Shown piece after piece: positions 25,146-29,068 of a stretch of DNA of 64,000 nt. Made by a program: the position numbers and the translations under genes. The DNA comes from Candidatus Nomurabacteria bacterium RIFCSPHIGHO2_12_FULL_42_19 (GTDB lineage: Bacteria > Patescibacteriota > Minisyncoccia > Phycocordibacterales > UBA9973). The notes beneath the pieces are model-generated. The model had not been told where the DNA came from, made no database searches, and saw nothing but the letters and a program-made list of their open reading frames with translations. Numbering within the stretch: the stretch's first letter is position 1; every line of letters starts with the position of its first letter. The stretch covers positions 4,457-68,456 of the forward strand of contig MFUM01000004.1 of the NCBI GenBank assembly GCA_001786955.1. The letters are read 5' to 3'.

Positions 25146-27167
25146 ATGAAGGAATCTAAAAACAAATTGCAAGGTATTATTTCCATCTCTTCAAAAGGCA
25201 CAGGCTATGTGGCAACCGGAGAAGTGAAGAATAAGGGCCAGGACCCGGAAATTGATTTCCAGCATTTAAATACCGCCCTGCACGGAGATATGGTAGAGAT
25301 AATCTTGCACCCGAAAGGTAAAAATCGCCAAACTGCTGAAGTTTCAAAAATAATATCGCGCGCAAAAATGAATTTCGCGGGAGTTCTGGAAGAAGAAAAC
25401 AAAATGTTCTTCCTGAAACCGGACGATACAAAAATGTATACAGATATTCTAATCCCAACCAAGTTTTTAAATAATGCGAAAGTTGGACAAAAGGTTTTTG
25501 TGGAAATAATTTCATGGAAAGATCCCCACAAGGCTCCGGAAGGAAAAGTAATAAAAGTTTTAGGCCGTCCGGGAGACAATGATACTGAAATGGAAAGTAT
25601 TGCGATAGAAAAAGGCTTTGATGCGAAACTTCCGCATAAAGTGGAAGAAGAAGCAAGGAAAATAAAGCAAAACGGCATTAAAGAAACCGACTATGCCGGA
25701 CGCAGAGATTTTCGCAAAACCCTGACCTTCACTATTGACCCCTCGGATGCGAAAGATTTTGATGATGCGATATCTTTCAGATTCCTCCCCTCCTTAAATA
25801 AGGAGGGGGCAGGGGGTGGTAATTCAAAAGACCACCCCGCCTCCGGCACCCCTCCTAAAAAAGGAGGGGAAGAGCAATATGAAGTCGGCATACACATCGC
25901 CGATGTCTCGCATTATGTAAAAATCGGCAGTGCTTTAGATGAAGAAGCGCGAGAAAGAGGAACTTCGGTATATTTGGTAGATAGGACGATACCAATGCTG
26001 CCGGAAACGCTTTCTAATGATTTGTGCTCTCTGGTGCCAAATAAAGACCGGCTTACTATGAGCGCAGTATTTATCATAGATAAAAATGCTCATGTAAAAA
26101 GCAAATGGTTCGGGCGCACGGTTATACATTCAAAAAAAAGATTTACTTACGAAGAAGCCGAGGAGTTAATAAAAAAATCCGCTGCGCCGTTCCATAAAGA
26201 ACTTTTTATCTTGAACAGCTTGGCAAAAAAATTAACCGGGGAAAGATTTGCGCAGGGCGCAATATCGCTTGACCAGGAAGAAGTAAAATTTGTTTTGGAT
26301 AAAAATGGAGTGCCGTTGAAAGTAATAAAAAAAGAGCGCGGCGATTCAAACAGGCTGATTGAGGAATTTATGCTCCTGGCAAATAAAAAAGTGGCGGAGG
26401 TCTTGTCTCCAAAAAATATAAAGGGTGTGAAAGATGAAGGCGTATCCATATACCGAGTGCACGATCTGCCGAGTAAGGAAAAAATGGCCGATCTGGCGTT
26501 TTTTTTGCGAAGTTTGGGACATAGAGTCTCCTTGCAGAACGGCCTTATCCCGACATATGAAATAAATAAGCTTCTAGAGAGTTTGGCCGGCAAAAATGAA
26601 GAAGATACGGTGCATCGCGCAGTTATCCGTTCTATGGCTAAAGCGCTTTATTCCACCAAAAATATCGGGCATTACGGTCTGGCTTTTCAATATTATACTC
26701 ACTTCACTTCCCCGATTAGGCGCTATCCGGACATCATGGTGCACAGACTTCTGGAAAAATTCCTCTCTGGCAAAAAAATAAAAAAGGAGGATTTAAAAGA
26801 GAAATTAATCGAATATGAAAAAATCGCCCTAAATGCATCCGAACAGGAAAAACGCGCCGCAGATGCCGAACGAGCTTCCATAAAATATAAACAAGTGGAA
26901 TATATGTCCAGATATCTGGGAAAAAGCTTCGACGGGGTAATCAGCGGGATAACCGAGTGGGGCATGTATGTGGAAGAACTAGAGACAAAATGCGAAGGTT
27001 TGGTGCGGGTACGTGATATGAATGACGATTTTTATATTTTCAATGAAAAAAAATTGGAATTAACCGGACAAAAAAAGAAAAAAAAGTACAGGCTCGGCGG
27101 CCGTGTCAAAATAAAAGTAAAATCGGTTGATTTGGAGAGAAAAACGATAGATTATATATTGACATGA
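25146..27167 (+). CDS. rnr: Ribonuclease R (RNB-family 3'-5' exoribonuclease with C-terminal S1 domain)
   Basis: RNB catalytic region (HIADVSHYV, DR..PMLPE) and a C-terminal S1 domain are present. The ATG at 25146 is the likely start, since the ORF-track start overlaps rpsP. It carries an in-frame family-A repeat insertion. Confidence 0.85.
   Translation: MKESKNKLQGIISISSKGTGYVATGEVKNKGQDPEIDFQHLNTALHGDMVEIILHPKGKNRQTAEVSKIISRAKMNFAGVLEEENKMFFLKPDDTKMYTDILIPTKFLNNAKVGQKVFVEIISWKDPHKAPEGKVIKVLGRPGDNDTEMESIAIEKGFDAKLPHKVEEEARKIKQNGIKETDYAGRRDFRKTLTFTIDPSDAKDFDDAISFRFLPSLNKEGAGGGNSKDHPASGTPPKKGGEEQYEVGIHIADVSHYVKIGSALDEEARERGTSVYLVDRTIPMLPETLSNDLCSLVPNKDRLTMSAVFIIDKNAHVKSKWFGRTVIHSKKRFTYEEAEELIKKSAAPFHKELFILNSLAKKLTGERFAQGAISLDQEEVKFVLDKNGVPLKVIKKERGDSNRLIEEFMLLANKKVAEVLSPKNIKGVKDEGVSIYRVHDLPSKEKMADLAFFLRSLGHRVSLQNGLIPTYEINKLLESLAGKNEEDTVHRAVIRSMAKALYSTKNIGHYGLAFQYYTHFTSPIRRYPDIMVHRLLEKFLSGKKIKKEDLKEKLIEYEKIALNASEQEKRAADAERASIKYKQVEYMSRYLGKSFDGVISGITEWGMYVEELETKCEGLVRVRDMNDDFYIFNEKKLELTGQKKKKKYRLGGRVKIKVKSVDLERKTIDYILT
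25781..25878. repeat. GC-rich palindromic element, family A (double unit: cctcccctccttaaataaggaggggg ... cacccctcctaaaaaaggagggg), in frame inside rnr
   Basis: Shares an identical 22-nt core (accaccccctgccccctcctta, reverse complement) with the element in pheS. The encoded peptide is LNKEGAGGGNSK. Confidence 0.65.
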
Positions 27168-29068
27168 ACTTTGTTTTTAATTCAAAAATAAAATTGTGGA
27201 AATGGATTTTAGCCGCTATTTTTGTAGGATTTTTTTTGACGTCATTATTTTTTAAAAATACGGAAAAAGAAGGAATATTCCGGCCGCAAAATAATAAAGC
27301 TTCGGTAATACAACTTATCGCCCCGGAACCAAAAACAATAAAACCCCGGTATTTTTACGTCAATAAAGACGCAAACGGACAACCTAAAGTCTCCGCCACG
27401 GCATATTTGGTCGGTGATTTGAATACCGGAGAAGTCGTTTTGGCAAAAAATCAAGACCAGAAATTCCCGATTGCTTCCATATCCAAGCTGATGACGGCAC
27501 TTGTTGCTAGAAAAATAACAACTTTGGACGATACGGCGCGGGTAAGCAAAACAGCTTTGGCAACTTACGGCAAAAACGGCGAATTAAGGTTGGGAGAAAA
27601 AATAAAAATCGCCGACCTGATATATCCTCTTCTTTTGGAATCAAGCAATGATGCGGCGGAAGTACTCGCCCTGCATTTTGACAGAAATAATTTTATTTCA
27701 AAAATGAACCAGGAGGCGGAAAAATTAAAGATGTCCGGAACGTTATACGAAGATCCGAGTGGGCTTTCTCCCAATAACCAGTCGACCGCTTCCGACATAT
27801 TTAAGTTGACAGGATATTTGATGCAGCAACAGCCGGATCTGCTGAAAATCACGACAAAACGAAGTTATTCCGATAAAAAACATTCTTGGTCAAATATCAG
27901 CCAGTTTCTGGGCAAAGACGGTTATTTGGGAGGAAAAAGCGGATATACGGATGAAGCGAAACAAACAGCTGTTTCTATTTTTTCTTTGCCTCTCGGGGAA
28001 AATAGCTACCGCCCTGTTGCTATTGCCTTATTGCAAAGCTCTGACCGCTACAAAGACGTAGAAAATATCCTAAATTATCTGAAGAAAAACATATACTACG
28101 GGGGAGAAGCAGATGCAAATACCAATTGGGTGCAGGAAAAAATCGGAGTGCCGGATATTAAAGATCCTAATTTTATAACTATTGTTTTCGCCGGCGACGT
28201 AATGCTTGGACGCGGAGTCCGAAATTCAGTTATAAAAAATTTCAATAATGATTATTCCGCGCTGTTTGGAAAATCAAAAGAACTGTCGGAATTATTAAAA
28301 AAATCCGATATTGTTTTTGCTAATTTGGAAGGTACCGCTTCGGACCAGGGCATTGACCAGAAAAATTTATATTCTTTTAGAATGGACCCGGCCGTCATTC
28401 CGGCCTTAAGGGGCGCGGGCATCAGCATTTTATCTATGGCTAATAACCATATTGCGGACTGGGGACGCCTGGCATATATTGATACGCTTTCGCGCTTGAA
28501 AGAAAATGAAATACTCTACACCGGTGGAGGAAATAATAAAACAGAAGCCGAAACGCCGGCAGTTATTGAAAAATACGGAATGAAAATCGGTTTTCTCGGT
28601 TTCTCCGATAAAGGACCGGACTATATGGCGGCAGACGCCGATAAAGCAGGCGTTCTTCTGGCCAACGATCCGGATTTTGATGAAATAGTTAAAAAAGCCA
28701 GCGCCAAAGTTGACTATTTGATAGTTTCGTTTCACTTCGGTGATGAATACCAGGCGAAGCATAATGCCAGGCAGGAATATTTAGCGCACAGGGCGGTTGA
28801 TGACGGCGCGAAAATTATTATTGGAAACCATCCGCATGTCATAGAAGATACGGAAGTTTATAAAAACAGCTTCATCGCCTACTCGCTCGGCAACTTTATC
28901 TTTGACCAGTCTTGGAGCAAGGACACGATGAAAGGCATGCTTCTGGAAATTAAATTAAACAGAGACGGTTCTATGACAGTCAAGAAAAATATTGTCCAAT
29001 TAAATTCCGCTTTCCAGCCGGATAAAATAATTAAAGGCAAAGAGGAGAAAGTGATTTTCGGGAAGTAA
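27164..29068 (+). CDS. Fusion protein: N-terminal D-alanyl-D-alanine carboxypeptidase (peptidase S11, SxxK/KSG) and C-terminal CapA/PGA-synthesis metallophosphatase-like domain
   Basis: N-terminal TM helix. SISKLMTA (SxxK) and GGKSGYT (KTG-like) are present. The C-terminal region (VFAGDVMLGRG...SFHFGDEY...GNHPHV) matches CapA/PGA_cap. Confidence 0.65.
   Translation: MNFVFNSKIKLWKWILAAIFVGFFLTSLFFKNTEKEGIFRPQNNKASVIQLIAPEPKTIKPRYFYVNKDANGQPKVSATAYLVGDLNTGEVVLAKNQDQKFPIASISKLMTALVARKITTLDDTARVSKTALATYGKNGELRLGEKIKIADLIYPLLLESSNDAAEVLALHFDRNNFISKMNQEAEKLKMSGTLYEDPSGLSPNNQSTASDIFKLTGYLMQQQPDLLKITTKRSYSDKKHSWSNISQFLGKDGYLGGKSGYTDEAKQTAVSIFSLPLGENSYRPVAIALLQSSDRYKDVENILNYLKKNIYYGGEADANTNWVQEKIGVPDIKDPNFITIVFAGDVMLGRGVRNSVIKNFNNDYSALFGKSKELSELLKKSDIVFANLEGTASDQGIDQKNLYSFRMDPAVIPALRGAGISILSMANNHIADWGRLAYIDTLSRLKENEILYTGGGNNKTEAETPAVIEKYGMKIGFLGFSDKGPDYMAADADKAGVLLANDPDFDEIVKKASAKVDYLIVSFHFGDEYQAKHNARQEYLAHRAVDDGAKIIIGNHPHVIEDTEVYKNSFIAYSLGNFIFDQSWSKDTMKGMLLEIKLNRDGSMTVKKNIVQLNSAFQPDKIIKGKEEKVIFGK

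Follow-up and report, generated by a model that had tools for sequence, protein, structure and literature searches.

What does a domain named for capsule synthesis do when it is joined to a peptidoglycan peptidase and set among housekeeping genes? The question is raised by one gene in a stretch of 64,000 nucleotides from the uncultured Candidatus Nomurabacteria bacterium RIFCSPHIGHO2_12_FULL_42_19 (contig MFUM01000004.1; hereafter the window), where a single open reading frame (ORF), 27164..29068 on the plus strand, starts with ATG, contains no internal stops, and encodes a 634-residue fusion of an S11 D,D-peptidase with a CapA-like domain. Among the subunits that take part in poly-gamma-glutamate (PGA) synthesis, CapA/PgsA has long been the most obscure, and the one relative whose biochemistry is defined, MslH, epimerises a peptide. 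Our analysis suggests that the fusion is anchored in the membrane in type II orientation and may work outside the cytoplasm as a two-enzyme protein by which a patescibacterium of the Paceibacteria/Nomurabacteria type remodels the stem peptides of its peptidoglycan. Two-step processing of the stem, by the S11 domain and then by the CapA-like domain, is in our view the best explanation overall, with about an even chance of being right.

The earlier note on this DNA had described a single polypeptide with an S11 half behind a signal anchor and a CapA half beginning at about residue 330. The ORF is continuous and carries both Pfam domains far above their cut-offs, Peptidase_S11 (PF00768) at residues 70-270 (130.3 bits versus 27.6) and PGA_cap (PF09587) at residues 339-582 (232 bits versus 27; model positions 1-255 of 255), so that the similarity of each half and the boundary near residue 330 are supported by profile search. 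The hydropathy scan found a sole hydrophobic segment, residues 11-30, with K8, K10, and K13 N-terminal to it or beside it. The AlphaFold2 model (mean predicted local distance difference test, pLDDT, 78.6) places a helix at residues 3-31 and, after disorder that lasts to about residue 64, an S11 domain modelled with high confidence (70-310), a short linker, and a CapA-like domain (337-630); at a predicted template modelling score (pTM) of 0.50, the relative orientation of the domains is unreliable. Since the anchor is single and the lysines lie on its N-terminal side, an N-in/C-out topology is predicted, with both enzyme domains outside the membrane. That the fusion is a real bifunctional extracytoplasmic protein is, we believe, close to certain. 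The gene and its parts are as follows:

27164..29068, plus strand: whole gene, membrane-anchored S11 DD-peptidase/CapA-like fusion, 634 residues, end including the stop codon (ORF list, Pfam, identical protein in two other assemblies)
27194..27253, plus strand: N-terminal signal anchor, residues 11-30 (hydropathy scan; AlphaFold2 helix 3-31)
27254..27370, plus strand: low-confidence spacer between anchor and S11 domain, residues 31-69 (pLDDT below 50 at residues 30-64 and 67-71)
27371..28093, plus strand: Peptidase_S11 (penicillin-binding, DD-peptidase) domain, residues 70-310
28094..28171, plus strand: conserved inter-domain linker, residues 311-336 (invariant Y311, Y312, G313, G314, T320, and W322; distal part QEKIGVPDIKDPNF)
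28172..29053, plus strand: CapA/PgsA-like (PGA_cap, calcineurin-like fold) domain, residues 337-630

Conservation was assessed in an alignment of 45 members of the fusion family and in a second set of 18 diverse CapA domains that includes the authentic CapA of pXO2. The S11 motifs SISK (105-108) and KSG (258-260) and the CapA motifs (F)AGDVM..GRG (343-351), SFHFGDEY (522-529), and GNHPHV (554-559), all pointed out before, are present, and the third S11 motif, SSN (160-162), is found besides. The residues of interest, with their MslH equivalents, are:

27476..27487, plus strand: SxxK motif, S105-I-S-K108 (acylation serine and general-base lysine; S105 and K108 invariant in the 45 sequences)
27641..27649, plus strand: SxN motif, S160-S161-N162 (invariant in the 45)
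27935..27943, plus strand: K(T/S)G motif, K258-S259-G260 (K258 and G260 invariant in the 45)
28193..28198, plus strand: G344-D345, where D345, at the end of the first strand, is the putative equivalent of MslH Asp11, partner of His295 (invariant)
28322..28333, plus strand: N387-L-E389-G, where E389 corresponds to the MslH metal ligand Glu44 (alignment; invariant)
28442..28459, plus strand: N427-N428-H429-I-A-D432, where N428 corresponds to the metal ligand Asn87 and H429/D432 to the catalytic dyad His88/Asp91 (alignment; invariant in the fusion family)
28733..28750, plus strand: H524-F-G526-D-E528-Y, where H524 corresponds to MslH His259 and G526 stands at the His261 position (E528 invariant as in authentic CapA, HWGEEY)
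28823..28837, plus strand: G554-N-H556-P-H558, where H558 corresponds to the MslH catalytic His295 (H556 invariant too)

Invariant throughout the fusion family are S105, K108, S160, S161, N162, K258, G260, D345, E389, N427, N428, H429, D432, H524, G526, E528, H556, and H558, as are the linker residues listed above. The CapA-family motifs are also invariant over the 18 diverse domains, except that the dyad aspartate (D432 position) is asparagine in two of them. Judged by these motifs, both halves look catalytically competent. The fusion protein shares 64-84% identity with ten syntenic relatives (67-85% in the N-terminal and 67-84% in the C-terminal half), a range like those of RNase R (73-79%) and SMC (64-82%) in the same relatives, where TrmD shows 62-72%. 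It therefore behaves as a vertically inherited core gene, and both of its halves appear to be equally constrained by purifying selection.

The first step of the proposed mechanism is well supported by sequence. The S11 domain would be acylated on Ser105 and remove the terminal D-Ala of pentapeptide stems as a DD-carboxypeptidase; alternatively, it may cut D-Ala-diamino-acid cross-links as a DD-endopeptidase. The label "PBP5-type" given earlier holds in so far as this is an S11 D,D-peptidase with complete motifs, but Pfam finds no match to PF07943, the C-terminal beta-sandwich domain of PBP5, in the fusion protein, the C-terminal amphipathic anchor is absent, and the closest NCBIfam model is PRK11669, a PbpG/PBP7-type endopeptidase (84 bits versus a cut-off of 294). 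Scores against the named equivalogs DacA, DacC, DacD, PbpG, PBP4, and PBP3 are all far below their cut-offs, and as every NCBIfam equivalog cut-off is missed, the S11 half may have either carboxypeptidase or endopeptidase specificity.

Of 8000 candidates scored in a word-indexed search that covered 5.8 billion proteins, 1077 matched the fusion protein at E<=1e-5, and all of the best 120 (68-100% identity, 589-708 residues) carry both PF00768 and PF09587, a close homologue (P0110) bearing an additional PG_binding_1 domain. When each GTDB species was represented by one genome, at least 589 relatives were confirmed among the first 600 candidate stretches, nearly all in Patescibacteria (Paceibacterota, Nomurabacteria, Vogel-, Yanofsky-, Falkow-, Nealson-, and Colwellbacteria, and others). 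When hidden Markov models (HMMs) of each half were run over all ORFs of 80 species-representative loci, both halves were found in one ORF in 25 loci, an S11 gene with a CapA gene overlapping its end in two, an S11 relative only in three, and a CapA domain in a protein that lacks S11 in about 50.

The most informative comparison is offered by a single genomic slot, in which one gene lies between the RNase R gene and the oppositely running SMC and RNase III genes (loci outside the window are designated by L numbers). This slot holds S11-CapA in the window, L083, L084, and L023; CapA alone, with 52-70% identity to the C-terminal domain of the window protein, in L022, L024, L025, and L031; S11-CapA-VanY in L017; and CapA-VanY in L028. 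CapA is therefore the constant core and a D-Ala-D-Ala carboxypeptidase its recurrent partner. The sequences suggest that the CapA-like domain is the ancestral component of the syntenic locus and that the DD-carboxypeptidase module is interchangeable, being supplied either by an N-terminal S11 domain or by a non-homologous C-terminal VanY domain; S11 and VanY have unrelated folds and the same D-Ala-D-Ala carboxypeptidase activity. The CapA-only orthologues possess their own N-terminal anchor immediately ahead of the CapA domain, and their juxtamembrane segment (EEKIIPEIKKQD in L022, EEIPEIKDPDF in L025) is recognisable in the distal part of the window linker. The parts also occur as separate neighbouring genes: in L035 and L040, a CapA gene with its own methionine and anchor overlaps the end of an S11 (or YkuD-S11) gene, and in L031, a separate VanY gene lies just downstream of CapA.

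The same company is kept beyond this slot. Among unusual loci, Pfam revealed S11-CapA-VanY, S11-VanY-CapA, S11-CapA-CapA(-VanY), S11-CapA-polysaccharide deacetylase, and YkuD-S11-CapA architectures, and further CapA-VanY, CapA-M23, CapA-deacetylase, Memo-CapA, and CapA with FG-GAP or beta-propeller domains. An exhaustive HMMER search with the CapA domain alone against 1.84 billion representatives at 50% identity returned 26,444 proteins at E<=1e-3. Within the best 150 of these, 68 are multi-domain proteins, in which the partner is Peptidase_S11 in 36, VanY in 15, YkuD in 10, Memo in seven, Polysacc_deac_1 in three, and M23, Amidase_2, and GGACT in one each. The recurrent fusion or adjacency to S11 and VanY is the strongest available evidence that the CapA-like domain is coupled to D-Ala trimming of stem peptides, an argument from association.

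Some individual loci are worth recording. Memo lies N-terminal to the CapA-like domain in L065 (5937-7688), L067 (3-1571), and L077 (1397-3199), and L036 (6587-10448) encodes two tandem CapA-like domains in one protein, followed by a second gene with another. L023 (JBLHIK010000014.1) is labelled a Flavobacteriaceae metagenome-assembled genome and shows the complete patescibacterial synteny (TrmD, S16, RNase R, S11-CapA, SMC, RNase III, NusB-NUDIX, ThrRS-like, GyrB); the contig is therefore almost certainly mis-binned. Synteny is missing in two loci labelled "Gammaproteobacteria", L065 and L079, and in L082 ("Acidobacteriota", GC content 0.59), which have CapA-only genes or other fusions, and many loci are titled "uncultured Candidatus Saccharibacteria", a label that appears generic.

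For the chemistry of the second step, MslH, the only solved relative of the CapA-like domain, serves as the guide; it was matched by phmmer with the C-terminal domain (E=3.5e-18), by profile (E=6e-35), and by Foldseek (E=1.3e-15). MslH is a Ca(II)-dependent epimerase of the C-terminal residue of a peptide, with its metal on Glu44, Asn87, His259, and His261 and with His88/Asp91 and His295/Asp11 as acid/base pairs (PMC10406935). In the alignments, E389, N428, H429, D432, H524, and H558 fall at Glu44, Asn87, His88, Asp91, His259, and His295; the pairwise and profile alignments both start at MslH residue 27, and the equivalence of D345 and Asp11 is inferred from position. At the metal site, E389, N428, and H524 are thus kept, and the invariant E528 or H556 may substitute for His261, whose position is taken by Gly526. 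The domain has a calcineurin-like fold, and the full dinuclear set (DxH, GD, GNH[DE], H, GHxH) is not found in it: motif I reads D345-V-M347 without the histidine, the motif II aspartate is Glu389, motif III is NNH..D, and motif V is GNHPH. It is reported that deletion of pgsA shifts the D/L ratio of PGA from 75/25 to 5/95 (PMC6029982), and the discoverers of MslH propose that CapA is an epimerase introducing D-Glu into the polymer (PMC8179263).

From the published substrates, we reason that MslH and CapA may share one substrate feature, an N-acylated residue with a free alpha-carboxylate (the C-terminal Trp of MslA and the gamma-linked Glu of PGA, respectively). Peptidoglycan stems carry a gamma-linked D-iso-Glu at position 2, and DD-carboxypeptidases expose a C-terminal D-Ala. 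The tethered CapA/PgsA-like metal enzyme may therefore act on the same stem peptide as S11, at a residue with a free alpha-carboxylate, because both candidates, the newly exposed C-terminal D-Ala4 and the gamma-linked D-iso-Glu2, match this feature. The likeliest chemistry would be C-alpha epimerisation by the H429/D432 and H558/D345 pairs around a metal on E389, N428, and H524, proposed here because it is shown for MslH and proposed for PgsA/CapA. We advance the epimerase assignment tentatively, by analogy, and rate it somewhat short of an even chance. More doubtful is the complete proposal that the CapA-like domain is an extracytoplasmic stem-peptide epimerase inverting D-Ala4 or iso-Glu2 after DD-carboxypeptidase trimming, and that this is the ancestral, PGA-independent job of the CapA/PgsA family. 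To our knowledge, epimerisation of stem peptides after wall assembly is not known in any bacterium, and the proposal, if true, would add a post-assembly cell-wall modification of a new class.

Several points weigh against stem-peptide processing by an epimerase. We know of no biochemical activity shown for any patescibacterial CapA-like protein, including that of the window, and epimerisation of a stem residue once D-Ala has been removed serves no obvious physiological purpose. Epimerase activity of authentic CapA/PgsA is only proposed, literature searches having found no direct enzymology of it. On the racemase content of genomes of the candidate phyla radiation (CPR), the literature searches gave nothing usable. 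The window protein scores 66.8 bits against the MslH model NF038314, whose cut-off is 700, and the replacement of ligand His261 by Gly526 gives the metal site the CapA pattern (HxGxEY), not that of MslH. The calcineurin-like fold is classically hydrolytic, and D345, E389, N428, H524, H556, and H558 may be enough potential ligands for a hydrolase. Channelling between the two active sites gains no support from the structural model, given its pTM. Among the CapA partners, Memo, FG-GAP, and beta-propeller domains are not obviously related to peptidoglycan, and the Memo fusion is unexplained by our model. Lastly, the search for PGA genes described below extended 10 kb to either side of each gene, and pgsB and pgsC may lie elsewhere in the genomes.

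A serious rival, by reason of the fold and the ligands that survive, is that the CapA-like domain is a metal-dependent hydrolase, with the S11 peptidase and the hydrolase acting one after the other on an envelope substrate. It might be an L,D-carboxypeptidase or a gamma-D-glutamyl amidase, or a phosphodiesterase that cleaves linkages in wall polymers or to lipids. The six invariant residues just named could hold one or two metals, a 5'-nucleotidase profile matches weakly (E=0.0036), and the fusion partners in question are all peptidoglycan hydrolases or transpeptidases. However, the histidine of the motif I DxH is replaced by an invariant methionine (D345-V-M347), and the single-metal, non-hydrolytic site of MslH has been credited to such a rearrangement (PMC10406935). 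No PF09587 member described as a hydrolase was found in the literature, the only characterised member being an epimerase (PMC10406935, PMC8179263). We consider a hydrolytic role unlikely on balance.

Another explanation, which follows the earlier note, is that the fusion ties the trimming of peptidoglycan to a polymer, PGA or capsule-like, that is being made, exported, or anchored, with the C-terminal domain acting as CapA/PgsA in a PgsBCA-type complex. The domain is a bona fide CapA homologue, with 34% identity to the pXO2 CapA ectodomain (E=9e-45) and a full-length PGA_cap match, and as the PGA of B. anthracis is attached to peptidoglycan, some connection of the two polymers is not far-fetched. 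Against this, authentic B. anthracis pXO2 CapB, CapC, CapA, CapD, and CapE were used as tblastn probes on the window and 84 related loci with flanks of up to 10 kb (1.49 Mb): the CapA probe matched 82 of the 85 sequences, and CapB, CapC, CapD, and CapE gave no match at E<=1e-3 in the 64-kb window or the 84 loci. A PGA operon is rejected for these neighbourhoods, those annotated with Pfam contain housekeeping genes alone, and the fusion partners of CapA are peptidoglycan enzymes, not ligases. In B. subtilis, moreover, pgsBC without pgsA still makes PGA (PMC6029982), and CapA is therefore not the polymerising part. Of the coupling suggested in the earlier note, the peptidoglycan-trimming side is upheld by the invariant S11 motifs, while the capsule or PGA side finds no support in the neighbourhoods or the partners. 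A role in a PgsBCA-type complex seems to us improbable, and we hold it probable that the gene is not part of a PGA synthetase and that its product is directed at peptidoglycan rather than PGA.

It is also conceivable that the CapA-like domain is non-catalytic and binds gamma-D-glutamyl stem peptides or serves as a spacer or scaffold that positions S11, since it occupies the place of the non-catalytic C-terminal domain of PBP5-type enzymes, PF07943 being absent, and its orientation in the model is flexible. All equivalents of the MslH dyads and three of the four metal ligands are nevertheless invariant in the family and in authentic CapA, and the CapA-only orthologues occur at the same locus without a peptidase; the domain therefore has a function of its own, and a purely structural role is very improbable. 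An assembly or frameshift artefact joining neighbouring genes, brought to mind by the few lineages with separate overlapping genes (L035, L040), is rejected with next to no chance left to it, as the frame is continuous, the identical 634-residue protein occurs in the same context in two independent ENA assemblies, both domains are joined in the best 120 homologues from many projects and in the 25 species-representative loci, the linker is conserved, and the CapA-gene anchor of the true split cases is absent at the window junction.

Stem-peptide processing by S11 and a CapA-like enzyme would bear on more than this gene. The patescibacterial CapA-like domain is a conserved core gene product with no PGA ligase found nearby and is tied by fusion or adjacency to peptidoglycan enzymes (D-Ala-D-Ala carboxypeptidases of two unrelated kinds, together with domains of the L,D-transpeptidase, M23, amidase, and deacetylase types), which places the family in stem-peptide metabolism and makes the substrate hypothesis concrete, namely muropeptides with a free alpha-carboxylate. 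If the epimerase assignment is true, a new cell-wall modification would exist in a radiation that may be a large share of bacterial diversity, and the role in PGA synthesis seen in Bacillus would then look like a derived one. If it is false, a widespread cell-wall enzyme is still misnamed "capsule synthesis", an annotation in need of correction. The domain combination had been thought undescribed, and our literature searches found no paper describing an S11-CapA fusion, CapA in CPR bacteria, or CapA-like proteins in peptidoglycan metabolism, but the architecture is very common among Patescibacteria in public databases, where it has been present since the groundwater CPR genomes of 2015 (GW2011 names); the gene is therefore not unknown. 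Such proteins go under "CapA family protein" at NCBI; at JGI they are called either D-alanyl-D-alanine carboxypeptidase or poly-gamma-glutamate synthesis protein, and one of them bears both names.

The gene immediately upstream is:

25155..27167, plus strand, start approximate: RNase R gene (sequence ...ACATGAAC...; RNB, S1, and CSD2 Pfam matches on orthologous neighbours)

In ...ACATGAAC..., the TGA stop of the RNase R gene and the ATG of the fusion gene share an ATGA overlap, and the two genes are therefore probably co-transcribed and translationally coupled. Relatives with about 70% identity keep the order rpoC, rpoB, trmD, KH protein, S16, RNase R, fusion gene, SMC, RNase III, NusB-NUDIX, L32, ThrRS-like, and GyrB, and the window elsewhere encodes further core patescibacterial genes (MreB, MreC, Tgt, S2, Tsf, RpoD, DnaG, LigA, an AddA-like helicase-nuclease, and a type IV pilus cluster). 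No pathway clue was found among the neighbours, the Pfam-annotated neighbourhoods of the window and related loci consisting of housekeeping genes only. This conserved context marks the fusion as a core gene and is silent on its pathway.

Other features of the window and its relatives were noted in passing. NusB and NUDIX are joined in a single protein (32079-33041, minus strand), in a position kept in relatives (320, 317, and 301 residues). The type IV pilus cluster (49239-58602, minus strand) comprises a prepilin peptidase (49239-50063), a PilC-like T2SSF protein (51242-52450), a PilT-like ATPase (52522-53580), a PilB-like ATPase with MshEN (54066-55808), and PilM (57475-58602). Between 59298 and 60564, overlapping ORFs lie on opposite strands (59338-60564, plus, 408 residues; 59298-60158, minus, 286 residues), neither with a Pfam match. 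The GyrB of the window (36292-38391, minus strand, 699 residues) has no intein, whereas that of L083 (GCA_028718635.1; 20473-21917) has 1125 residues and an Intein_splicing domain. L084 carries a PemK-family toxin gene between rpoB and rpoC (2545-2940), and L001 carries a Fic-domain and HTH_17 protein pair between the ThrRS-like gene and gyrB (10446-11184, approximately window 35514-36252, minus strand), which is missing at that position in L083 and L084 and could be a toxin-antitoxin-like insertion. At 1657-3060 (minus strand) lies a gene for a LysA-like, pyridoxal phosphate-dependent Orn/DAP/Arg decarboxylase, which, should it act on diaminopimelate, is relevant to the type of the stem peptide, Lys or meso-diaminopimelate. 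Three tRNA genes were found (9659-9731, plus; 44452-44536, plus; 62477-62563, minus), two of which, at 85-87 nt, suggest long variable arms, and no match to rRNA or another Rfam family turned up in the window.

Compared with known systems, the fusion joins two known families, S11 and PGA_cap, and its C-terminal half is a true CapA homologue that fails both the PgsBCA genomic association (within 10 kb on either side) and the MslH cut-off. The low-molecular-mass penicillin-binding proteins of family S11 (B. subtilis DacB/PBP5*, E. coli PBP5/PBP6 and PBP7/PbpG) share with it the complete SxxK, SxN, and KxG motifs and the well-matched PF00768 domain, but the window protein is anchored by an N-terminal helix rather than a C-terminal amphipathic one, lacks the PBP5 beta-sandwich, carries a second enzyme domain, and stays below every equivalog cut-off. 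VanY/LdcB-type (M15) carboxypeptidases and YkuD L,D-transpeptidases are attached to or adjoin the orthologous CapA-like domain in sister lineages and are absent from the window protein, where S11 would supply the DD-peptidase function; these partners point to the same D-Ala-trimming, tetrapeptide-using pathway.

With MslH (PDB 8GQ9; NF038314), the epimerase of a lasso-peptide C-terminal Trp, the window protein shares the equivalents of Glu44, Asn87, His88, Asp91, His259, and His295, and putatively Asp11, but not His261. MslH (437 residues) is a cytoplasmic enzyme of ribosomally synthesised and post-translationally modified peptides and has extra substrate-recognition elements, whereas the window protein is extracytoplasmic and membrane-anchored, and its neighbours are RNase R, SMC, and RNase III, with no lasso-peptide cluster. 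CapA of pXO2 and PgsA of B. subtilis resemble it in the 34% identity, which extends over CapA residues 42-335, in the common motifs GD, NxE, ANNH, HxGxEY, GxHPHV, and YSLGNFxFDQ, and in an extracytoplasmic domain behind an N-terminal anchor. Unlike them, the window gene has no capB, capC, capD, or capE nearby by the probe search and lies among housekeeping genes, coupled to that for RNase R. Its product bears an S11 DD-peptidase between anchor and CapA domain, and its relatives are fused to other peptidoglycan enzymes.

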